Source of the DNA: Escherichia coli
GTDB taxonomy: Bacteria; Pseudomonadota; Gammaproteobacteria; Enterobacterales; Enterobacteriaceae
Assembly (NCBI RefSeq): GCF_044324875.1
Contig: NZ_CP172185.1
DNA: 64,000 nucleotides
Direction: 5' to 3' (one strand)
In this document: positions 188 through 7,131 of the stretch, one piece after another
Numbering within the stretch: position 1 is the stretch's first letter
Layout of the letters: every line of letters begins with the position of its first letter
The notes under the pieces: model-generated
The model's database searches: none
Seen by the model: the letters and a program-made list of their open reading frames with translations, nothing else
What the model was told of the DNA's origin: nothing
Position numbers and translations under genes: made by a program

Positions 188-1741
188 ATGCAAATGATTA
201 CCTCGCGACAAAACAGATTATTACGATTCCTTTTACCACGAAGGGAATATACGACTATTGTTACGATTGCCGGCTATTTAAATGTTTCGGAAAAAACCAT
301 TCAACGTGATTTACGTTTACTTGAGCAATGGCTGGAACAATGGCGAATAACCGTTGAGAAGCGTGCTGGCGCAGGTGTGATGTTAGACTCGAAGAATATT
401 ACTGATTTGCTGCATCTTGATCATTTGTTGGGAGCAGAATGTGAAGAGATTGATGGTGTAATGAATAATGCCAGGCGCGTTAAAATAGCGTCGCAGTTAT
501 TAATTGAAACACCGAATGAAACGTCGATCAGTAAATTGTCAGAGCGCTATTTTATCAGTGGAGCCTCTATTGTTAATGACCTGAGAGTGATTGAGTCCTG
601 GCTTGCGCCGTTGGGGTTATCATTGATCCGCAGCCCAAGTGGTACGCATATTGAAGGTAGTGAAGGGCAAGTCCGACAGGCAATGGCATTACTGATTAAC
701 GGCATTATTAACCATAATGAGCCGCAAGGTGTCGTGTATTCACGTCTGGATCCCGGAAGTTATAAAGCATTAGTCCATTATTTTGGAGAAGAAGAGGTGT
801 TATTTGTCCAGTCATTGTTACTGGATATGGAAAATGAATTAAGTTGGTCTTTGGGAGAGCCTTATTACGTTAACATTTTTACTCACATCCTTATTATGAT
901 GTATCGCAACACGCACGGGAATGCGTTATCCAGAGAAGAAGATCAAACCAGGCAATATGATGAAAATATCTTTAATGTTGCCAGTCAGATGATTCATAAG
1001 ATAGAACAACGAATTGCACATACATTGCCCGATGATGAAGTCTGGTTTATTTATCAATATATCATTTCATCAGGTGTGGCGATTGATGGACAAAAAGATG
1101 TTAGCATTATTTCACATATGCAGGCCAGCAATGAAGCGCGTCTGATTACCTGGCGTTTAATTACGGTATTCAGTGACATCGTGGACTGCGATTTTAGTGA
1201 AGACAGCGCATTATATGATGGCTTGTTGGTTCATATTAAGCCGCTGATTAACCGACTAAATTATCGCATTCATATCCGTAATCCATTGCTGGAAGATATT
1301 AAAGCAGAATTAGCGGATGTCTGGCGGTTGACGCAATATGTGGTGAATCAGGTATTTAAAACCTGGGGTGAGAATGCAGTGAGCGAGGATGAAGTAGGTT
1401 ACCTGACCGTTCATTTTCAGGCTGCGATGGAGCGGCAAATTGCCCGTAAACGTGTATTACTGGTCTGTTCAACCGGAATCGGAACTTCGCATCTACTGAA
1501 AAGCCGTATTCTGCGAGCATTTCCTGAATGGACGATTGTTGATGTTATTTCAGCAGCGAATTTATCACAGGTTTTGCCTGACAATATCGAACTGATTATT
1601 TCGACCATTAATTTGCCTACAGTCACTATGCCGGTCGCTTATGTTACCGCTTTTTTTAATGATGCCGATATTAAGCGAGTCACTGAAATGGTGATTACGG
1701 GAAAATTACATCATGCGACATCTCGGGTCGTTGAAATTTAA
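188..1741 (+). CDS. PRD-containing transcriptional regulator of a PTS operon (BglG/MtlR/LicR-like; N-terminal HTH, PRD region, C-terminal EIIB-like domain)
   Basis: 517-aa ORF; N-terminal helix-turn-helix-like segment; Cys-containing EIIB-like motif LLVCSTGIGTSHLL near C-terminus; sits directly upstream of EIIA/B/C genes; ATG at 188 preceded by a G-rich RBS-like stretch. Confidence 0.65.
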   Translation: MQMITSRQNRLLRFLLPRREYTTIVTIAGYLNVSEKTIQRDLRLLEQWLEQWRITVEKRAGAGVMLDSKNITDLLHLDHLLGAECEEIDGVMNNARRVKIASQLLIETPNETSISKLSERYFISGASIVNDLRVIESWLAPLGLSLIRSPSGTHIEGSEGQVRQAMALLINGIINHNEPQGVVYSRLDPGSYKALVHYFGEEEVLFVQSLLLDMENELSWSLGEPYYVNIFTHILIMMYRNTHGNALSREEDQTRQYDENIFNVASQMIHKIEQRIAHTLPDDEVWFIYQYIISSGVAIDGQKDVSIISHMQASNEARLITWRLITVFSDIVDCDFSEDSALYDGLLVHIKPLINRLNYRIHIRNPLLEDIKAELADVWRLTQYVVNQVFKTWGENAVSEDEVGYLTVHFQAAMERQIARKRVLLVCSTGIGTSHLLKSRILRAFPEWTIVDVISAANLSQVLPDNIELIISTINLPTVTMPVAYVTAFFNDADIKRVTEMVITGKLHHATSRVVEI

Positions 1742-1767: not shown

Positions 1768-2238
1768 ATGGACATAACAAAAATCCTGAATACGAATCGC
1801 GTTATTTTAGATATGCAAGCGACGAATAAAGCGGAGGCGATTGAAGAATTAACTAATCTTCTCAAAAAAGATGGTGCGATCGATTGTCGGGAAACCTTTA
1901 TTAAAGATGTCTGGCAGCGCGAAGCGGAAGGCTCGACTGGTTTTGAAAATCATATTGCGATCCCGCATGGTAAATCTTCTGCGGTAATTAATACCACGCT
2001 GGCTATCGGGCGTACCCGGCAGGATATTCCCTGGGAAACACTGGATGGCAGTAGCGTACGCTGTATTATTTTATTTGCGGTACGTCTTGAAGATCAAAAT
2101 ACCACTCATATCCGTTTACTTTCCCAGGTCGCGGGCGCGCTTGCAGATGATGACATCATAGCGCAATTGCTGGTTGAGACGAGCCCGCAAAAAATCATTG
2201 ATCTCTTTAGTCAGTATGCACAATCCGATGTCTACTAA
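1768..2238 (+). CDS. PTS EIIA component (fructose/mannitol type)
   Basis: 156-aa ORF with HIAIPHG phospho-histidine-like motif typical of EIIA type 2; operon position. Confidence 0.7.
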   Translation: MDITKILNTNRVILDMQATNKAEAIEELTNLLKKDGAIDCRETFIKDVWQREAEGSTGFENHIAIPHGKSSAVINTTLAIGRTRQDIPWETLDGSSVRCIILFAVRLEDQNTTHIRLLSQVAGALADDDIIAQLLVETSPQKIIDLFSQYAQSDVY

Positions 2239-2255
2239 ATAACAGGGAGTATATC

Positions 2256-2570
2256 ATGAATATTGTCTGTGTTGCCGCCTGCACGGCGGGTATTGCTCAC
2301 ACCTATATTGCTCGTGAAAAGTTAATTAAAGGGGCAAAAGCACTGGGCCACACCATTAAAGTTGAAACCCAGGGAACCATTGGTACAGAAAACGAATTAC
2401 AGGCGGCAGAGATCTCTGCTGCTGACGTCGTGATTCTTGCTGTGGATGTGAAAATAAAAGGAGAAGAACGTTTTACCAATAAACGCATTGTGCGAGTAAA
2501 GACAGAGATCGTCATTAAATCGCCCGTTCAATTTCTTGAAAAGGTCGAAAAATCACTGGGAAATAAATGA
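2256..2570 (+). CDS. PTS EIIB component (fructose-like)
   Basis: 104-aa ORF, N-terminal Cys motif VCVAACTAGIAHT typical of fructose-type EIIB. Confidence 0.7.
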   Translation: MNIVCVAACTAGIAHTYIAREKLIKGAKALGHTIKVETQGTIGTENELQAAEISAADVVILAVDVKIKGEERFTNKRIVRVKTEIVIKSPVQFLEKVEKSLGNK

Positions 2571-2594
2571 TCCTTATACTGGAGGGATCTTAAT

Positions 2595-3686
2595 ATGAAA
2601 GAAAATGAAATTCCGGTTTCACAGGAAATTAAAAAACATTTATTAACCGGCATCTCGTGGATGATACCCCTTATTGTGGCCGCCGGGATATGTATTGCGT
2701 TGGGGCAAGTTCTTGGCGGTACAGATGTTGGTGAAAAAACAGGAACAATCCCGTGGATGCTTAATCAGATTGGCGGCTGGGGAATGGGGCTGATTGTGCC
2801 GCTGATTAGCGCGGCAATTGCCTATTCTATTGCCGATCGTCCCGGATTTGCCCCGGGCCTGATTGTCGGCTTTCTCTGTGGGCAAATCCATACCGGATTT
2901 ATTGGCGGTATGTTGGGTGGTTTCCTGGTGGGCTACACCATTTTGCTACTTAAACGCTATATTCGCCTGCCGCAGTCGATGCAAGGACTCATGCCAATCA
3001 TGGTGTTGCCGGTATTAAGCACCATTATCGGTGGGCTGTTAATGATGACGCTGATTGGTAAACCCATCGCCTGGTTACAAGAAGCACTGATTCATTTGCT
3101 CGAGTCGATGCAGGGCGGATCGCGCTTCCTGATGGGGGCCATACTTGGCGCGATGGCAACCTTCGATTTCGGTGGTCCGGTCAACAAAACCATGTCGCTG
3201 TTTTCCGATGGCTTGCTGGTCAGTGGCGTCTACGGACCAGAAGCCGTGAAATTTGTCGGCTCAATCATCCCTCCGTTTGGCATCACACTTTCGTTCTTAC
3301 TGACACGCCATAAATACACCCGTGCGGAGCGCGAGGCGCTGAAAGCCGCGTTTCCGATGGGGATCTGCATGATCACTGAAGGAGTCATTCCGATCGCCGC
3401 GCGTGACCTGTTGCGAGTAGTGGGATCTTGTGTGGTGGCATCGGCGGTCGCGGGCGGCTTAATCATGGTGTGGGGCGTGGAGAGTCCGGTTCCACATGGC
3501 GGCATGTTTGTTGTGCCTCTGTTCACCCATCCTCTGCTGTTTTGCCTGGCGCTGGGTATAGGCACGGTGATTTGTGGCGTGATGCTTTCACTCTGGAAGA
3601 AACCGGTAACGGAACGCGACGAAGAGTTTGACGAACTGAGCGATCAAAAGCTGAAAGATGAAGAGATCATTTTCACCCTCGAATAA
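2595..3686 (+). CDS. PTS EIIC permease (fructose-like family)
   Basis: 363-aa hydrophobic, Gly-rich multi-pass ORF immediately after EIIA/EIIB. Confidence 0.7.
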   Translation: MKENEIPVSQEIKKHLLTGISWMIPLIVAAGICIALGQVLGGTDVGEKTGTIPWMLNQIGGWGMGLIVPLISAAIAYSIADRPGFAPGLIVGFLCGQIHTGFIGGMLGGFLVGYTILLLKRYIRLPQSMQGLMPIMVLPVLSTIIGGLLMMTLIGKPIAWLQEALIHLLESMQGGSRFLMGAILGAMATFDFGGPVNKTMSLFSDGLLVSGVYGPEAVKFVGSIIPPFGITLSFLLTRHKYTRAEREALKAAFPMGICMITEGVIPIAARDLLRVVGSCVVASAVAGGLIMVWGVESPVPHGGMFVVPLFTHPLLFCLALGIGTVICGVMLSLWKKPVTERDEEFDELSDQKLKDEEIIFTLE

Positions 3687-3697
3687 CCGGAGGCCCT

Positions 3698-4549
3698 ATG
3701 TTTGCCGATATGAAAAGTATGGTGATGAAAGCCTGGCATGAACATTACGCCTTGCTGGCGATCAACTGTATGAATCTGGAAAGTGCTCGCGCAGCTATCC
3801 GCGTGGCGGAGAAGAATCGCGCTCCGATCATTCTCAATCTCTATCAGGGGCATCTGGCGCATTTTCCTGCACCCGTCGCGGCGGCAGTGGTTAAAACGCT
3901 CGCGGAATCTGCCTCAGTACCGGTCACTCTGGCGCTTGATCATGGCAAAAATCCGGACTGTATTCGTCAGGCGTTTCGTGCTGGTTTCAGCGGATTAATG
4001 ATTGATGCTTCTGCTTTTCCCTTGGAGGAAAACGTGCGCCAGACCAAGGCGGTGGTGGAACTCGCCGCCAGCGCGCAGCTCTGCGTTGAAGGCGAACTGG
4101 GCCATCTGGCAGATGCGCCGCGTTACGACCAGGCCGCCAATGCAGACATGATGACGCAACCCACTGATGTGGAAGCGTTTATCGCGCAGACAGGCATTGA
4201 TCTACTGGCCGTTTCGGTAGGCACGGCGCACGGCATGTACGCGCCTGGTGTTGTACCTGCTATTGATTTTCAGCGTCTGGCGGAGATTTTCCACTGCTCG
4301 AGCGTGCCTCTGGCATTACATGGTTGTAGCGGTACGCCGTTCGATCAGCTCCAGCTCTGTACGACTCTGGGGGTAGCAAAAATCAACGTGGGGGCGGCCA
4401 TTTTTGAACGGGGGAAATCCGCGCTCCTGCATACCCTCTGTCACGATATATCCATTGAACTGGTGGACGCGCTGAAAGCTATGGAACTGGCCTTCGAAGA
4501 AGCGATTACACCGTATTTACAGGCGAGCGGCTCTATCGGCAAAGCCTGA
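3698..4549 (+). CDS. class II ketose-bisphosphate aldolase paralog 1 (FbaA/GatY/KbaY family)
   Basis: 283 aa; motifs LALDHG, GTAHGMY, LALHGCSG matching the zinc-ligand histidines of class II aldolases. Confidence 0.65.
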   Translation: MFADMKSMVMKAWHEHYALLAINCMNLESARAAIRVAEKNRAPIILNLYQGHLAHFPAPVAAAVVKTLAESASVPVTLALDHGKNPDCIRQAFRAGFSGLMIDASAFPLEENVRQTKAVVELAASAQLCVEGELGHLADAPRYDQAANADMMTQPTDVEAFIAQTGIDLLAVSVGTAHGMYAPGVVPAIDFQRLAEIFHCSSVPLALHGCSGTPFDQLQLCTTLGVAKINVGAAIFERGKSALLHTLCHDISIELVDALKAMELAFEEAITPYLQASGSIGKA

Positions 4550-4629
4550 TTCATTTTCTGTCATGGCCTTTATGCCAGTGCAATAACGCACCGGCAGGGC
4601 GGACTACACGCTGAAACTGGAGATTTAAC

Positions 4630-5490
4630 ATGTTAGTTTCGATGAAAGAATTACTGCAACCTACCCGCCAGCACGGCTTTGCCATTGGCGCATTTAATGT
4701 GGCGGATAACTGTTTCCTTCGCGCAGTCGTGGATGAAGCAGAAGCGACAAATACTCCGGCGATTATTGCCATCCATCCCAGCGAACATGATTTTGTGGGC
4801 GATGCCTTTTTCGCTCACGTTCGCGAAATTACCCAGCGTAGTCCGGTCCCGTTTGTACTGCACCTCGATCATGGTGCCTCTGTAGAGCATGTTTTGCGTG
4901 CGATTCGCTGCGGATTTACCTCAGTAATGATCGACGGTTCGCTGCTGCCGTATGAAGAAAACGTGGCGCTGACCGCAGAAGTGGTTCGCCTCGCTCACGC
5001 GGTTGGAGTGTCGGTTGAGGGTGAACTGGGAACCATCGGACAAACAGGAACGTCGGTAGAAGGTGGTGTTTCACAAGTGACCTACACAGATCCGGCGCAG
5101 GCCGCCGATTTTATTGCTCGTACAGGTGCCGACACTCTGGCTGTGGCGATTGGTACAGCGCATGGCATCTATCCAAAAGGGATGCAGCCGAAGCTGCAAA
5201 TGGACATTTTGCGCGACATTGCCGGACGTATTGATATTCCGCTGGTGCTACACGGTGGTTCGGCAAACCCGGACGCGGAGATTGCTGAATCAGTTACGCT
5301 CGGCGTCGGCAAAATCAATATCTCCAGCGATATGAAATACGCCTATTTCCAGAAAGTGCGTGAAATTCTCGCTAAAGAGAGCTGGTGGGACCCGAACGTC
5401 ATCTATCCGGATGCGATTAACGCGGCGCGGGAAGTCATTCGCCACAAAATGAAACTGTTCGGTTCGCTCGGTAAAGCATCACTGTACTAA
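4630..5490 (+). CDS. class II ketose-bisphosphate aldolase paralog 2 (tagatose/fructose-bisphosphate aldolase-like)
   Basis: 286 aa; motifs GAFNV, LHLDHG, GTAHGIY, LVLHGGS typical of GatY/KbaY/FbaA family. Confidence 0.7.
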   Translation: MLVSMKELLQPTRQHGFAIGAFNVADNCFLRAVVDEAEATNTPAIIAIHPSEHDFVGDAFFAHVREITQRSPVPFVLHLDHGASVEHVLRAIRCGFTSVMIDGSLLPYEENVALTAEVVRLAHAVGVSVEGELGTIGQTGTSVEGGVSQVTYTDPAQAADFIARTGADTLAVAIGTAHGIYPKGMQPKLQMDILRDIAGRIDIPLVLHGGSANPDAEIAESVTLGVGKINISSDMKYAYFQKVREILAKESWWDPNVIYPDAINAAREVIRHKMKLFGSLGKASLY

Positions 5491-5537
5491 GCCAGAAGGG
5501 CGGGGTGACCCGCCTTTTACGCAACAAGGAACGAGAT

Positions 5538-6470
5538 ATGCACTATCTGGGGTTGGATATTGGTGGGACCAAAATCGCCGCCGTCGTCATGGATGCGCAT
5601 GGCTGGGAGATTCGCCGTTACCGCTGCCCGACGCAAAAGTCGACATATCAACAATTTGTCTCATGCGTTGTGGCGTTTATCGAGCAGATTAGGCGGGACG
5701 TTCAACGACCGATGCTGACAGGGATCGCCTTACCCGGCAGTATCTCGCCACTCACTGGCCTGATTAAAAACGCGAATATTCAGGTGATTAACGGTCATGC
5801 GTTACAGGCTGATTTGCAGCAATTGCTTGGGCAACCGGTGGTGATAGCCAATGATGGTAACTGTTTCGCGCTATCAGAAGCTTGCGACGGTGCCGGGCAA
5901 GATTATGACGTGGTATTTGGTATTACGCTTGGTACGGGCTGCGGCGGTGGCATTGCCATCAAGCAACGACCGTTTATAGGGGCCTGGGGAAATGCTGCCG
6001 AATGCGGTCATATCACGTTGCCAGGCTATACGGAGCAGGAAGATGGTCCATCAGTCAGTTGCTATTGCGGCAAACACAACTGCGTGGAGTCGTTTGTTTC
6101 CGGCAGCGGTTTTAGTGAACGCTATCAACAGATGACTGGTAACTTGCTCACTCCTGCGGCGATTGTCACCCTGGCACAACGTGGTGATGCTTGTGCCATG
6201 CAGCAGGTGGCACGTTTTCGCCAACAGCTTGCCCGCACGCTGGCAACCATCGTTAACGTTGTTGACCCTGGCGTGATTGTGATCGGCGGCGGGCTTTCGA
6301 ATGTGGAACTGCTTATCACCGCTCTGAACGCAGAAGTTGCTCCACTGGTTTTCACCGATCAATTCACCACTCCCATTGTAAAAGCACAGCACGGCGACAG
6401 TAGCGGAATGCGTGGCGCTGCCTGGCTTGCTATGCGCAACGGAGAAGCCAATGAAACGTTCACAAATTAA
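5538..6470 (+). CDS. ROK-family sugar kinase
   Basis: ORF track 5505-6470; likely ATG at 5538 (MHYLGLDIGGTK) preceded by AAGGA; LGLDIGGTK ATP-binding motif and CYCGKHNCVE zinc motif typical of ROK kinases. Confidence 0.7.
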   Translation: MHYLGLDIGGTKIAAVVMDAHGWEIRRYRCPTQKSTYQQFVSCVVAFIEQIRRDVQRPMLTGIALPGSISPLTGLIKNANIQVINGHALQADLQQLLGQPVVIANDGNCFALSEACDGAGQDYDVVFGITLGTGCGGGIAIKQRPFIGAWGNAAECGHITLPGYTEQEDGPSVSCYCGKHNCVESFVSGSGFSERYQQMTGNLLTPAAIVTLAQRGDACAMQQVARFRQQLARTLATIVNVVDPGVIVIGGGLSNVELLITALNAEVAPLVFTDQFTTPIVKAQHGDSSGMRGAAWLAMRNGEANETFTN

Positions 6471-7131
6471 TTATGTTATTGATAAAGCACATGCCATTGC
6501 GCAGACCTTCCGCGTTTGTTTGCCAGAGTTCGCCTATTTTACGGTGGATGACTGGCTGCAGCGGGAACGGGATAACTGGCAAGAAGTGGTCGACTTACAG
6601 CTCGGTTGGGATATCACCGATTTTGGTCGTGGTGATTTCAACCAAACGGGACTAACACTGCTAACGATGCGCAACGGCGCGCTGGGGGCGGCGGCATATC
6701 CAAAACCGTATGCTGAGAAAATGTTGCAGATCCAACAAGATCAGCAGACTCCCTGGCATTTTCACACCCACAAAATGGAAGATATCCTCAATCGGGGCGG
6801 TGGAGACTTATGCATGCAGTTGGCCTGGGCCAACGAAGCCAATCTCTGTGATGATCAGCGGGTTATTACCGTGAGTGTTGATGGTCAGCGGCGTGCCGTG
6901 AAACCTGGTGAAACGCTGGTGCTAAAGCCGGGGCAGGGCATTTGCCTGCCGCCGCGTCTGTATCATCGCTTCTGGGCGGAAAAAGCGTTTGTTCTCGGCT
7001 GGGAAATTTCGATGGTAAATGATGACCAACATGATAACCATTTTCTTGAGCCGGGAGGACGTTTTCCGGCGATAGAAGAAGATGAACCGGTGAAATGGTT
7101 ATTGTGTAGTGAGTATGCTGTTTTGCGGTAA
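6451..7131 (+). CDS. cupin-fold sugar isomerase (D-lyxose/D-mannose isomerase-like)
   Basis: ORF track 6412-7131; likely ATG at 6451 (MKRSQINY) preceded by GGAGA; HFH..H...E-type cupin metal motif (WHFHTHK, LYHRFWAE); overlaps kinase 3' end by 20 nt. Confidence 0.55.
   Translation: MKRSQINYVIDKAHAIAQTFRVCLPEFAYFTVDDWLQRERDNWQEVVDLQLGWDITDFGRGDFNQTGLTLLTMRNGALGAAAYPKPYAEKMLQIQQDQQTPWHFHTHKMEDILNRGGGDLCMQLAWANEANLCDDQRVITVSVDGQRRAVKPGETLVLKPGQGICLPPRLYHRFWAEKAFVLGWEISMVNDDQHDNHFLEPGGRFPAIEEDEPVKWLLCSEYAVLR

Follow-up and report, generated by a model that had tools for sequence, protein, structure and literature searches.

The window examined here is a 64,000-nucleotide stretch of Escherichia coli contig NZ_CP172185.1 (assembly GCF_044324875.1). 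Near its start, on the plus strand, lies a cluster of genes for a PRD/Mga-type regulator, the EIIA, EIIB, and EIIC subunits of a PTS transporter, two class II aldolase-fold proteins termed Ald1 and Ald2, an ROK kinase, and a D-lyxose/mannose isomerase (Table 1). This eight-gene operon is an insertion between yicI and yicH. The two adjacent aldolase reading frames lie where the original prediction had placed them, and the Pfam family PF01116 matches each over its full length. Their placement in one operon is likewise borne out by the single plus-strand arrangement and by a consensus scan of the Ald1-Ald2 spacer, wherein neither promoter-like nor terminator-like sites were found.

Table 1. Genes and features of the aldolase-containing cluster in the window
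Feature	Position	Strand	Evidence or annotation
frz regulator, HTH + Mga + two PRD domains, PTS-controlled activator type	188..1741	+	Pfam HTH_11, Mga, PRD; RefSeq name 'BglG family transcription antiterminator'
PTS EIIA, fructose/mannitol type	1768..2238	+	TIGR00848 fruA IIA 126.9 bits (cutoff 103.5); Pfam PTS_EIIA_2
PTS EIIB, fructose type	2256..2570	+	TIGR00829 99.4 bits (cutoff 76.85)
PTS EIIC, fructose type	2595..3686	+	TIGR01427 PTS_IIC_fructo 311.7 bits (cutoff 157.55)
Ald1, divergent class II aldolase-fold protein, 283 aa	3698..4549	+	PF01116 E = 1.2e-74
Ald1-Ald2 spacer hairpin	4566..4600	+	7-9 bp stem in 80-nt spacer 4550-4629
Ald2, PRK08185-type class II aldolase, 286 aa	4630..5490	+	NF006042 525.9 bits (cutoff 405); PF01116 E = 7.9e-91
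ROK-family sugar kinase, closest to manno(fructo)kinase Mak, 310 aa	5538..6470 (RefSeq start)	+	Pfam ROK
Cupin D-lyxose/D-mannose isomerase family protein	6451..7131	+	PF07385 E = 1.6e-86; RefSeq CDS

RefSeq names the aldolase pair 'class II fructose-bisphosphate aldolase' and 'ketose-bisphosphate aldolase'. The ROK kinase scores 316.7 bits against the fructokinase model PRK09557, which is below the cutoff of 443, and its longest open reading frame begins at position 5505. The isomerase gene overlaps the end of the kinase gene by 20 nt.

The cluster corresponds to a published operon. The frz primers match the window without mismatches at positions 593-612 (plus strand) and 1416-1435 (minus strand), and the resulting 843-bp amplicon has the published size. 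Genomic region GR27, spanning yicH to yicI, is identified as the frz operon in another report (PMC12928451) and occupies the same insertion site as the window cluster. The published size of ~7.2 kb for frz is compatible with the eight genes seen here. Thus, Ald1 and Ald2 of the window are the two aldolases of frz, an accessory fructose-family PTS operon of ExPEC, and the pair is already known through the publication of that operon. Among 5426 complete E. coli genomes, 1606 carry the frz locus.

The operon was reportedly first presented from the ExPEC/APEC strain BEN2908 by Rouquet et al. in J Bacteriol in 2009, in an abstract said to list a regulator, three PTS subunits, two class II aldolases, an ROK kinase, and a cupin, and to call the aldolases type II ketose-1,6-bisphosphate aldolases. 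The BEN2908 operon and that of the window are alike in structure, except for a Gly210Cys substitution in Ald1 that is private to the window. According to later papers (PMC12928451 among them), frz aids fitness during oxygen restriction and late stationary phase, is linked to fitness in serum or gut, biases the type 1 fimbriae switch toward ON, and serves as a marker for virulent extraintestinal E. coli from birds and humans. Our searches on frz and aldolase revealed neither a biochemical follow-up nor a substrate in the searchable literature.

Three other connections were considered. Two 'TBP aldolases' enriched in B2 strains may be the frz genes, but the text gives no identifiers, so the match is not relied on here (PMC5996543). 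The cluster for D-tagatose in E. coli Nissle 1917 is of the ABC-transporter type and is not the window locus (PMC9720028). A link to the lyxose isomerase z5688 cluster of O157:H7, for which a literature search returned nothing relevant, was dropped because the window isomerase reaches only 270.8 bits against the NCBIfam equivalog NF051472 (cutoff 350).

At 80 nt, the spacer between Ald1 and Ald2 is unusually long. Each enterobacterial lineage has a stem of 7-9 bp at the equivalent position, formed by a different sequence and not followed by a U-run. RNAalifold yielded no consensus structure from a MAFFT alignment of 17 spacers because this alignment is out of register, and the folding energy of whole spacers was no better than that of shuffled sequences.

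Ald1 and Ald2 are old lineages with distinct active sites

The paralogs had been described as clearly diverged, and indeed they share 33% identity (BLASTP E = 4e-44), a distance about equal to that separating each from GatY, KbaY, and YdjI. In a neighbor-joining tree of the aldolase family, built without support values, Ald1 and Ald2 fall into separate old clades of matching topology that are not sisters. An origin by tandem duplication is ruled out by the low identity and the separate clades, and the possibility that the two are recent, near-identical duplicates is contradicted by the same tree. Ald1 and Ald2 therefore represent separate, old branches of the class IIb zinc aldolases, neither redundant nor recently duplicated.

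Both proteins match PF01116 from end to end (Ald1 residues 4-282, 251.7 bits; Ald2 residues 3-282, 304.8 bits). The AlphaFold2 model of Ald1 has a pLDDT of 90.6, and its best Foldseek matches are all class II aldolases, with a TM score of 0.91 to AgaY (1GVF); residues 141-150, in the mobile loop, are modeled with low confidence (pLDDT 54). By sequence, the nearest solved structures are AgaY (E = 7.9e-41) and Thermus aquaticus FBA (E = 4.1e-58). Neither protein attains an NCBIfam equivalog cutoff for FBA or TBA enzymes: Ald1 scores 211 bits against 343 required for TIGR01859, 187 against 383 for PRK12737, and 180 against 444 for TIGR01858, and Ald2 scores 279 against 423 for PRK12857 and 247 against 383 for PRK12737. 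The broad subfamily TIGR00167 (cutoff 215.6) is passed by Ald2 only, with 259.5 bits. Ald1 lies below every NCBIfam cutoff, including that of NF006042/PRK08185 (171 bits; cutoff 405), of which it is consequently a non-member.

The active-site motifs read LALDHGKN, VGTAHGMY, and LHGCSG in Ald1, and LHLDHGAS, IGTAHGIY, and LHGGSA in Ald2. As had been noted, both retain the zinc-ligand histidines (H83, H180, and H208 of KbaY; H110, H226, and H264 of FbaA), which are invariant in 73 of 73 Ald1 and 73 of 73 Ald2 sequences. The same invariance applies, in KbaY numbering, to N24, D82, D104, E132, E134, S211, K228, and N230.

The roles of class II aldolase active-site residues, including the mobile-loop Glu that deprotonates DHAP, have been described previously (PMC11194214). 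At the position of this Glu (FbaA Glu182, KbaY/GatY Glu142), Ald1 has Pro in 64 of 64 enterobacterial sequences and N, A, S, D, K, or G in the other nine, a call that depends on an uncertain alignment of the flexible loop. No conserved acidic loop position was found across the 73 sequences of the Ald1 family. The loop varies between phyla (DAPRY, DANHY, SSGNY, AVNG-D) and shows strong conservation among Enterobacterales (H136, D139, A140, P141, and Y143), with Asp139 in 63 of 64 sequences. Ald2 carries Gly at the loop Glu position (73 of 73) in a loop that is three residues longer, and has a Glu four positions on, within TG..[VI]EGG, in 72 of 73 sequences; it is shifted in one Pediococcus sequence (HIKEH). 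Of the two, Ald2 is probably the operon's main aldolase. The expectation that both enzymes are catalytically competent stands as regards the zinc site and the Asp-His pair, but it relied on zinc motifs only and is doubtful for Ald1. The absence of the loop Glu from Ald1, whose zinc core is kept, goes some way toward contradicting it.

The end of the site that would contact a second phosphate is also altered. The distal-phosphate Arg (FbaA Arg331; KbaY Arg257, in 'DPR') is replaced by Asn in 73 of 73 Ald2 sequences (WWDPN) and by A, V, P, S, D, T, or F in Ald1. The position of FbaA Ser61/KbaY Thr50 holds His in 73 of 73 Ald2 sequences, and Tyr (Enterobacterales) or Leu/Val in Ald1. Ald1 has its own conserved substrate-end motif, Q50 and H52, and the invariant motifs of Ald2 are IHP[ST]E, TG..[VI]EGG, and WWDPN. 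These losses cast doubt on the ketose-bisphosphate substrates originally proposed for the pair.

Conservation of the pair and a private allele

The gene order regulator-IIA-IIB-IIC-Ald1-Ald2 was found in 72 of 75 loci; of the three exceptions, two are truncated by the end of the sequence and one is a different system, which leaves 72 of 72 informative loci in the same order. Paired loci occur in Enterobacterales, Enterococcus, Pediococcus, Lactobacillus, Streptococcus, Marinilactibacillus, and Sebaldella, representing three phyla. Ald1 and Ald2 form an obligate pair that is inherited together, with Ald1 always first, in a sample that was seeded with Ald1 and therefore covers close Ald2 orthologs only where Ald1 is present, being blind to those without it. 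The Ald2-like genes that were seen alone are only more distant ones (45-54% identity). Unlike the paired core, the ROK kinase and the lyxose isomerase are present or absent by lineage, and most plant-associated genera and most Firmicutes have the core without isomerase or kinases. A distant frz-type locus also carries a ScrK-like fructokinase and ManA. Neither the frz operon nor any of the relatives examined contains a PfkB-type 1-phosphate kinase.

The pairwise distances among Ald1 sequences track those among their Ald2 partners (r = 0.94), and Ald1 is ~2.1 times more diverged. Values of dN/dS are 0.05-0.17 for Ald1, which corresponds to purifying selection, and 0.00-0.06 for Ald2; judged by these ratios, both genes are functional. 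A pseudogene reading of Ald1 is rejected, since its dN/dS and its invariant active-site core speak against it.

The cysteine in the LHGCSG motif of Ald1, which had been regarded as a feature of this paralog, is real and is encoded by codon 210 (TGT, positions 4325-4327), but it is a private allele of the window strain rather than a trait of the Ald1 lineage. Gly occupies this position in 63 of 64 enterobacterial orthologs, with Cys private to the window sequence, and residue 210 is the sole difference between the window protein and the Ald1 of the nearest E. coli genome. A 40-mer with the T allele occurs in none of the 5426 complete E. coli genomes, whereas its G version occurs in 121. In some E. 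coli, Ald1 is frameshifted through loss of 1 nt at gene position 325 or through an insertion at 331, and these loci have breaks in other frz genes as well.

Substrates and roles of the two enzymes

Several known systems bear on how the pair might function. The tagatose-1,6-bisphosphate aldolase systems GatY/GatZ and KbaY/KbaZ resemble it in that a class II aldolase gene lies beside, or is clustered with, a second aldolase-related gene in a PTS sugar operon. The partners GatZ and KbaZ, long thought to be non-catalytic, have now been shown to epimerize at C4. They are proteins of ~420 aa from another family with a His-His-Glu metal site, whereas Ald1, at 283 aa, belongs to PF01116, has a His-His-His site, and lies outside the GatZ/KbaZ family. 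GatY and KbaY also differ from both frz enzymes in possessing the residues that hold the distal phosphate, namely Thr50 and the arginine of DPR. A closer parallel in this respect is YdjI of E. coli K-12 (PDB 6OFU), which is similar in fold and size (~31-36% identity) and likewise lacks the distal-phosphate Arg. RefSeq names it L-glycero-L-galacto-octuluronate-1-phosphate aldolase, a ketose-1-phosphate aldolase that by its name would produce DHAP and an unphosphorylated aldehyde, which speaks for a monophosphate substrate. YdjI differs in being a single aldolase of a non-PTS cluster with the kinase YdjH, in having a Glu in the loop (GNETVYEE), and in other pocket residues. SqiA, a class II sulfofructose-phosphate aldolase (PDB 8Q57-8Q5A), is another class IIb enzyme with a non-bisphosphate substrate and is among the top matches of Ald1 (Foldseek TM 0.89; sequence E about 1e-38). 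It shares only ~30% identity, however, and presumably acts in sulfoquinovose catabolism, as its name implies; sulfosugar genes independent of a PTS are missing from the frz cluster.

The single PRK08185 (NF006042) aldolases L085, L086, L087, and that of the cluster upstream of L004 belong to the Ald2 subfamily. Like frz, they are associated with a fructose-type PTS, no 1-phosphate kinase, and, recurrently, a lyxose-isomerase cupin and a free-sugar kinase; unlike frz, they comprise one aldolase with no Ald1 partner. L085 (412.7 bits; NF006042 cutoff 405) lies in a fructose-type PTS operon and is followed by a lyxose isomerase and a xylulokinase (XylB 537.9 bits; cutoff 380). L086, which falls just short of the cutoff with 388.4 bits, also lies in such an operon and is followed by a DUF1537-type acid-sugar kinase. 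These neighborhoods, like the ScrK-like fructokinase and ManA of the distant frz-type locus, also hint at a monophosphate substrate.

The reading that we tentatively favor, although with confidence that falls somewhat short of even, is that Ald1 and Ald2 are distinct enzymes acting on ketose 1-phosphates made by the PTS, with Ald2 as the direct cleaver and Ald1 as a second catalyst. The fructose-type PTS would deliver a ketose as its 1-phosphate, which Ald2, with its zinc site, Asp-His pair, and Glu on a longer loop, would split into DHAP and a free, unphosphorylated aldose. Such a pathway would include no 1-phosphate kinase step and no bisphosphate. The freed aldose would be salvaged by the variable accessory genes, namely the D-lyxose/mannose isomerase and the ROK fructo/mannokinase in the window, and a xylulokinase or a mannose-6-phosphate isomerase in relatives; this functional link between aldolase, isomerase, and kinase is predicted from gene neighborhood. 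Ald1, which has the zinc site, the C-C cleavage residues, and Q50/H52 without the loop Glu, would be a second catalyst and not a spare copy, and its target may be a different stereoisomer or a related sugar phosphate of the same pathway.

Much of the argument turns on whether the substrate carries one phosphate or two. That the pair comprises two ordinary ketose-1,6-bisphosphate aldolases, acting on epimeric FBP-like and TBP-like substrates after a host kinase has made the bisphosphate, seems to us quite improbable. The RefSeq product names point in this direction, as do the term reportedly used for the aldolases in the original frz abstract and AgaY and T. aquaticus FBA as the nearest solved structures, and the canonical PTS ketohexose routes for fructose and tagatose run through 1,6-bisphosphates. 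Those routes need a PfkB-type 1-phosphate kinase, however, and this is the kinase missing from the operon and its relatives; the ROK family acts on free sugars. Both enzymes also lack the distal-phosphate Arg and Ser/Thr of FbaA, GatY, and KbaY, and both miss the FBA/TBA equivalog cutoffs. A second phosphate site is conceivable in that His49 of Ald2 or His52/His55 of Ald1 could bind an anion, and host FruK could supply a 1,6-bisphosphate. On the sequence evidence, the substrate is probably not the bisphosphate that annotation implies. The notion that Ald1 is a dispensable or degenerating duplicate is far less probable still. Its twofold faster evolution, the frameshifted alleles of some E. coli, and the unusual Gly210Cys in the phosphate-binding loop of the window protein could be taken as decay, but dN/dS remains low, full-length Ald1 with an invariant active-site core is present in all informative loci of three phyla, and the breaks in other frz genes indicate whole-operon decay or assembly errors instead of Ald1-specific loss. 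Selection and conservation data have thus largely refuted this notion.

The lack of the loop Glu disfavors Ald1 as an efficient ordinary aldolase and favors rivals in which it is an epimerase or an accessory subunit. Ald1 might use zinc to catalyze an epimerization, or some other reaction that stops short of DHAP release; it would break and re-form the C3-C4 bond and supply the right stereoisomer to Ald2. We consider this unlikely. In its favor, Ald1 keeps the zinc site and the cleavage-initiating Asp while the loop Glu that would protonate or deprotonate the enediolate is gone, and without this proton transfer the intermediate would not be released as DHAP. There is precedent in the C4 epimerase activity of GatZ and KbaZ, which had long been regarded as aldolase chaperones, and of FbaA in vitro, for which a retro-aldol/aldol route has been proposed. 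Ald1 also precedes Ald2 in gene order, and the strong conservation of its loop in Enterobacterales suggests that the loop is functional and not degenerate. Yet the loop differs between phyla, which would be odd for a special catalytic device, Asp139 might serve as the base of an ordinary though slower aldolase, and the structural model is of low confidence precisely at the loop. A heteromer in which Ald2 is catalytic and Ald1 has an accessory or stabilizing function, in effect a GatZ/KbaZ-like role recruited within the aldolase family, we would likewise not expect to prove correct. Consistent with such a complex are the strict adjacency and fixed order of the genes in every informative locus, the asymmetric rates of a conserved partner and one evolving twice as fast, the missing loop Glu, and the precedent of aldolase genes paired with a partner that raises aldolase activity. 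In class II aldolase dimers such as FbaA and AgaY, the C-terminal arm of one subunit enters the active site of the other, and this arm bears the invariant WWDPN in Ald2 and is variable in Ald1. Against a mere scaffold role, however, Ald1 retains across phyla the zinc histidines, the Asp-His pair, Glu132/Glu134, the phosphate-loop Ser, and Asn230 (73 of 73), along with conserved Q50 and H52. Furthermore, Ald2-type aldolases that stand as single genes in related PTS operons indicate that the family needs no partner, and the 80-nt spacer with its hairpin disfavors tight translational coupling in Enterobacterales.

A bolder version of the monophosphate proposal is that the frz-type module represents a PTS pathway not described so far, serving a ketose that is rare or has a longer carbon chain, wherein Ald1 is a new functional type within the FBA-II fold, either a C4 epimerase or a specialized partner preparing the substrate for Ald2. 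This is speculative and rather unlikely in our estimation. Cleavage would act on the ketose 1-phosphate directly, with no further phosphorylation; the lyxose/mannose isomerase and a kinase would recycle the freed aldose, of manno or lyxo configuration; and Ald1 would be a zinc enzyme from which the Glu that protonates the enediolate has been lost.

The fixed gene order, the separate lineages, the rate asymmetry, the residue losses, and the private Cys allele are new in this analysis, and the ideas that the two proteins use different substrates or epimers, or form a heteromer, remain live hypotheses. The names 'fructose-bisphosphate aldolase' and 'ketose-bisphosphate aldolase' probably misdescribe a pair that occurs in dozens of enterobacterial and lactic acid bacterial species. 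For the frz operon, these results narrow the question to whether the substrate is a monophosphate or a bisphosphate, and to whether the pair operates as aldolases, with an epimerase, or as a heteromer.

The frz operon and its two aldolase genes

Ald1 and Ald2 are encoded by the fifth and sixth genes of an eight-gene plus-strand cluster that lies between yicI and yicH in E. coli genomes and was found in 1606 of the 5426 complete genomes of this species. It is the operon known as frz in extraintestinal pathogenic E. coli. The frz PCR primers of PMC6238794 match the window with no mismatches at positions 593 to 612 (plus strand) and 1416 to 1435 (minus strand), and the predicted product of 843 bp is equal to the published size. 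In strain BEN2908, the frz operon is listed as genomic region GR27 (yicH..yicI, 7227 bp), after Rouquet et al. 2009 (PMC12928451). Later papers report that frz aids fitness under oxygen restriction and in late stationary phase, and that it biases the type 1 fimbrial switch toward ON (e.g., PMC12928451).

The ORF list contains both genes where the original prediction had placed them, and the motifs it had quoted (LDHG, GTAHG, and LHG.S) are found in Ald1 and Ald2 alike. The original frz paper of 2009 by Rouquet and colleagues reportedly names "two type II ketose-1,6-bisphosphate aldolases" among the contents of the operon, and so, as gene content, the pair is not new. The observation itself is confirmed, but it concerns a published and annotated operon component. 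No biochemical follow-up on the frz aldolases was found in the literature searched.

The frz island is compositionally mosaic, with a G+C content of 40 to 43% across the regulator, EIIA, and EIIB genes (positions 1–2500) versus 51 to 54% from EIIC on (2500–7100). The low-G+C 5′ part falls far short of the E. coli average, which would fit a foreign origin or a separate history for the regulatory half. At the other end of the operon, the longest ROK ORF begins with a GTG codon at 5505, and the RefSeq start is an ATG at 5538. The first 20 nt of the isomerase gene (6451–6470) overlap the 3′ end of the ROK gene, which suggests that the two may be translationally coupled. The isomerase scores 270.8 bits against an NCBIfam equivalog cutoff of 350 (NF051472) and is therefore a paralog of the characterized Gram-negative lyxose/mannose isomerases rather than the same enzyme.

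Features of the frz operon in the window, and loci of other genomes (L-numbers) in which an aldolase related to Ald2 stands alone; positions in L-numbered rows are those of the locus
Feature	Position	Strand	Description
PRD/Mga-type regulator	188–1741	+	first gene of the frz cluster
EIIA, EIIB, EIIC	1768–3686	+	fructose-type PTS; three genes upstream of Ald1
Ald1	3698–4549	+	283 aa; Pfam PF01116 (class II fructose-bisphosphate aldolase), full-length match, E = 1.2e-74
Ald1-Ald2 spacer	4550–4629		80 nt
Spacer hairpin	about 4566–4600	+	7–9 bp stem, same place in each enterobacterial lineage, stem sequences different
Ald2	4630–5490	+	286 aa; Pfam PF01116, full-length match, E = 7.9e-91
ROK-family kinase	3′ of Ald2	+	nearest to manno(fructo)kinase Mak
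Cupin	6451–7131	+	D-lyxose/D-mannose isomerase family; last frz gene; RefSeq start 6451
L085	1–5007		IIA, aldolase, IIB, IIC, lyxose-isomerase cupin, bona fide xylulokinase (TIGR01312, 537.9 bits vs cutoff 380)
L086	646–6820		regulator, IIA, IIB, IIC, aldolase, DUF1537-type acid-sugar kinase
L087			regulator, IIA, IIBC, aldolase
L004	1–3470		PRK08185-type aldolase as sole aldolase of a fructose-type PTS operon; the distant frz-type locus of L004 adds a ScrK-like fructokinase and a class I mannose-6-phosphate isomerase after its lyxose isomerase

Active sites of Ald1 and Ald2

As originally predicted, the two proteins are clearly diverged from each other (33% identity; BLASTP E = 4e-44). Among solved structures, Ald1 is nearest in sequence to the tagatose-bisphosphate aldolase AgaY (1GVF; E = 7.9e-41) and Ald2 to the FBP aldolase of Thermus aquaticus (1RV8; E = 4.1e-58). 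A confident AlphaFold2 model of Ald1 (pLDDT 90.6, pTM 0.90) has only class II aldolases as its top structural matches, with a TM score of 0.91 to 1GVF. In the NCBIfam scan, Ald1 falls below every cutoff, and Ald2 passes only those of the uncharacterized subfamily NF006042/PRK08185 (525.9 bits vs 405) and the broad subfamily TIGR00167. Neither protein reaches the FBA or TBA equivalog thresholds of that collection.

Both families were aligned to E. coli FbaA, GatY, KbaY, and YdjI, and the numbering was verified against literature positions. In E. coli FbaA, zinc is bound by His110, His226, and His264, along with Glu174 in the buried site (review PMC11194214). Asp109 is the proton donor, and Glu182, which resides in a very flexible loop, deprotonates DHAP (PMC11194214). 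Residues N24, D82, H83, D104, E132, E134, H180, H208, S211, K228, and N230 (KbaY numbering) are the same in every one of the 73 Ald1 and 73 Ald2 sequences, and therefore the zinc-motif argument of the original prediction holds.

The same cannot be said for the reading of both proteins as catalytically competent bisphosphate aldolases, which is an over-reading given the Ald1 loop glutamate and the distal-phosphate sites of both proteins. The loop alignment is uncertain, and in it the glutamate position is occupied by Pro in 64 of 64 enterobacterial Ald1 sequences. The enterobacterial Ald1 loop is strongly conserved (GH-[LI]-[AG]-D-A-P-x-Y), but its counterparts in other phyla are very unlike it (DANHY, SSGNY, AVNG-D), and thus there is no family-wide conserved acidic position. 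The Ald1 model is weak in this same loop (pLDDT 54, residues 141–150), as expected if the element is mobile. By the same uncertain alignment, the Ald2 loop is three residues longer, with a Glu four residues further on (TG..[VI]EGG) in 72 of 73 sequences, and this residue could fill the role of the mobile-loop glutamate. At the distal-phosphate site, the "DPR" arginine (FbaA Arg331, KbaY Arg257) is replaced by Asn in every Ald2 sequence (WWDPN, 73/73) and by a variable small residue in Ald1. In place of the Ser/Thr of this site (FbaA Ser61, KbaY Thr50), Ald2 has His (IHP[ST]E) and Ald1 has Tyr or Leu, which in Ald1 precedes conserved Gln50 and His52. YdjI, a ketose-1-phosphate aldolase by its RefSeq name, likewise does not carry the distal-phosphate arginine.

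The cysteine of the LHGCSG motif, which had been presented as a feature of the first paralog, is indeed present in the window, but 63 of 64 enterobacterial Ald1 orthologs have Gly at this residue. It results from a single GGT-to-TGT change at position 4325 (codon 4325–4327), which converts Gly210 of the phosphate-binding loop LHGGSG to Cys. The Ald1 protein of the closest E. coli genome differs from that of the window at residue 210 alone. Among 5426 complete E. coli genomes, a 40-mer carrying the T occurs in none and its counterpart with G in 121. Gly210Cys is a private allele or strain-specific mutation, or possibly a sequencing error.

Conservation and descent of the pair

A profile of Ald1 orthologs scanned over one genome per species yielded 71 loci, which together with four further loci made 75. 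ORFs were called in these loci and then assigned by comparison with the eight window proteins. The census was seeded with Ald1, and close Ald2 orthologs without Ald1 are invisible to it. The order regulator-IIA-IIB-IIC-Ald1-Ald2 is observed in 72 of the 75 loci. In two of the three exceptions the sequence stops right after Ald1, and the third, L077 from an Erysipelotrichaceae MAG, belongs to another kind of system, which includes a transaldolase and a dehydrogenase. The loci span Escherichia, Citrobacter, Klebsiella, Kosakonia, Phytobacter, Mangrovibacter, Pantoea, Erwinia, Pectobacterium, and Brenneria within the Enterobacterales and, beyond this order, Firmicutes (Enterococcus, Pediococcus, Lactobacillus, Streptococcus, and Marinilactibacillus) and Sebaldella. 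The last two genes vary by lineage: ROK and isomerase genes occur together in Escherichia, Klebsiella, and Kosakonia; the isomerase without ROK in many Citrobacter, Marinilactibacillus, and Sebaldella; ROK without the isomerase in Mangrovibacter, Brenneria, one Enterococcus, and a Lactobacillus; and neither in Pantoea, Erwinia, and Pectobacterium. The PTS and the two aldolases thus form the conserved core, and Ald1-Ald2 is an ancient, deeply conserved two-enzyme module whose members are always together in the Ald1-seeded census.

Several neighboring genes were also seen in these searches. Short cupins (160–180 aa) of the same Pfam family as the isomerase lie 3′ of Ald2 in Marinilactibacillus, Sebaldella, and a metagenome clade. 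In Enterococcus sp. 665A, a further divergent class II aldolase related to Ald1 (L080, 760–1659) is located upstream of the frz-like operon. In L077 (2453–6134), a divergent Ald1-related aldolase is followed by genes for a transaldolase/FSA-family protein, a 3-hydroxyisobutyrate-dehydrogenase-like protein, and a 430-aa protein without a Pfam match.

In a neighbor-joining tree computed without support values, the Ald1 and Ald2 sequences fall into a separate clade each, and the branching orders within the two clades match. Ald2 is nested among PRK08185-type aldolases that occur singly in PTS operons, and Ald1 is nearer to other divergent aldolases and YdjI. By alignment, Ald1 is 32% identical to Ald2 versus 31 to 34% to GatY, KbaY, and YdjI. 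The separate clades and this similar distance rule out a tandem duplication. Nor are the genes, at 32 to 33% identity, recent duplicates with near-identical active sites, an outcome that would have counted against the original prediction. Pairwise distances of Ald1 and Ald2 across 73 gene pairs are correlated (r = 0.94), with Ald1 the more diverged in 99.8% of comparisons (median ratio 2.09). Both genes are under purifying selection (dN/dS, unsaturated comparisons only, of 0.05–0.17 for Ald1 and 0.00–0.06 for Ald2), and Ald1 is not a recent copy, nor is it in decay. Some E. coli assemblies (frz loci L088, L089, and L090) have a frameshifted Ald1 that has lost one nucleotide at gene position 325 or gained one at 331, in an A-run, and from which the gene caller recovers only the C-terminal 171 aa. 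Breaks also occur there in EIIA, EIIB, ROK, or isomerase genes, and these frameshifts may reflect whole-operon decay in those strains or assembly errors.

The spacer between the two genes is longer than the operon gaps upstream of it (11–26 nt). Its length is mostly 73 to 95 nt in Enterobacterales and roughly 11 to 60 nt in Firmicutes. The differences in hairpin stem sequence between lineages look like compensatory changes, and the hairpin could be an intercistronic mRNA stabilizer or a processing site that sets the Ald1:Ald2 ratio. No U-run follows the hairpin, RNAalifold found no consensus for the spacers, and folding z-scores were not significant.

Proposed pathway chemistry and possible roles of the two aldolases

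In the canonical PTS route for ketohexoses, the ketose is converted to a ketose 1-phosphate, then by a PfkB-type 1-phosphate kinase to a 1,6-bisphosphate, which is the substrate of a class II aldolase. The PfkB-type kinase is absent from the frz cluster and from every relative examined. A search of representatives at 50% identity revealed distant Ald2-type proteins (45–54% identity) that serve as the sole aldolase in fructose-type PTS operons (L085, L086, and L087). Free-sugar isomerases and kinases downstream of a PTS are hard to explain, but make sense if a free aldose arises inside the cell. From active-site residues and gene neighborhoods, we infer that the ketose 1-phosphate made by the PTS would be split by the Ald2-type aldolase, with release of DHAP and a free aldose. 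The aldose would then be isomerized (lyxose to xylulose, mannose to fructose) and next phosphorylated. The sole-aldolase operons look like a family of uncharacterized "PTS, ketose-1-phosphate aldolase, free-fragment salvage" pathways.

Why frz encodes two aldolases has several candidate answers. We rank first, tentatively, the reading that Ald1 and Ald2 are separate catalysts differing in substrate or stereochemical preference, which fits the invariant zinc and cleavage core of Ald1, its own conserved pocket residues, and strong purifying selection. Ranked second, and in our judgment unlikely, is that Ald1 acts as a C4 epimerase or as some other enzyme from which DHAP is not released. An enzyme of this kind would have to lose the enediolate-protonating glutamate but keep the cleavage machinery. 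The "chaperones" GatZ and KbaZ, which partner GatY and KbaY, have C4 epimerase activity, proposed to proceed by a retro-aldol/aldol route.

The active site of a class II aldolase is completed by the C-terminal arm of a partner subunit. Such shared sites, an arm that has the invariant motif WWDPN in Ald2 and is variable in Ald1, the strict adjacency of the genes, and their asymmetric rates would all suit an Ald1-Ald2 heteromer in which Ald1 is an accessory subunit. However, Ald2-type enzymes stand alone elsewhere, in operons of the L085 to L087 type, and this third-ranked explanation seems doubtful. That the pair acts as annotated, as two ordinary bisphosphate aldolases for two epimers, is quite improbable because the distal-phosphate residues and the kinase are missing, and redundancy or decay of Ald1 is essentially excluded. 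The original interpretation is partly supported, and the different substrates or the heteromer that it put forward are still candidate explanations of the pair.

If the Ald2-type aldolase does cleave a 1-phosphate to give a free aldose, the frz substrate would be a ketose of more than six carbons or another unusual compound. The residue and comparative results make this substrate question directly testable, and they recast the aldolase pair as a deeply conserved two-enzyme module.
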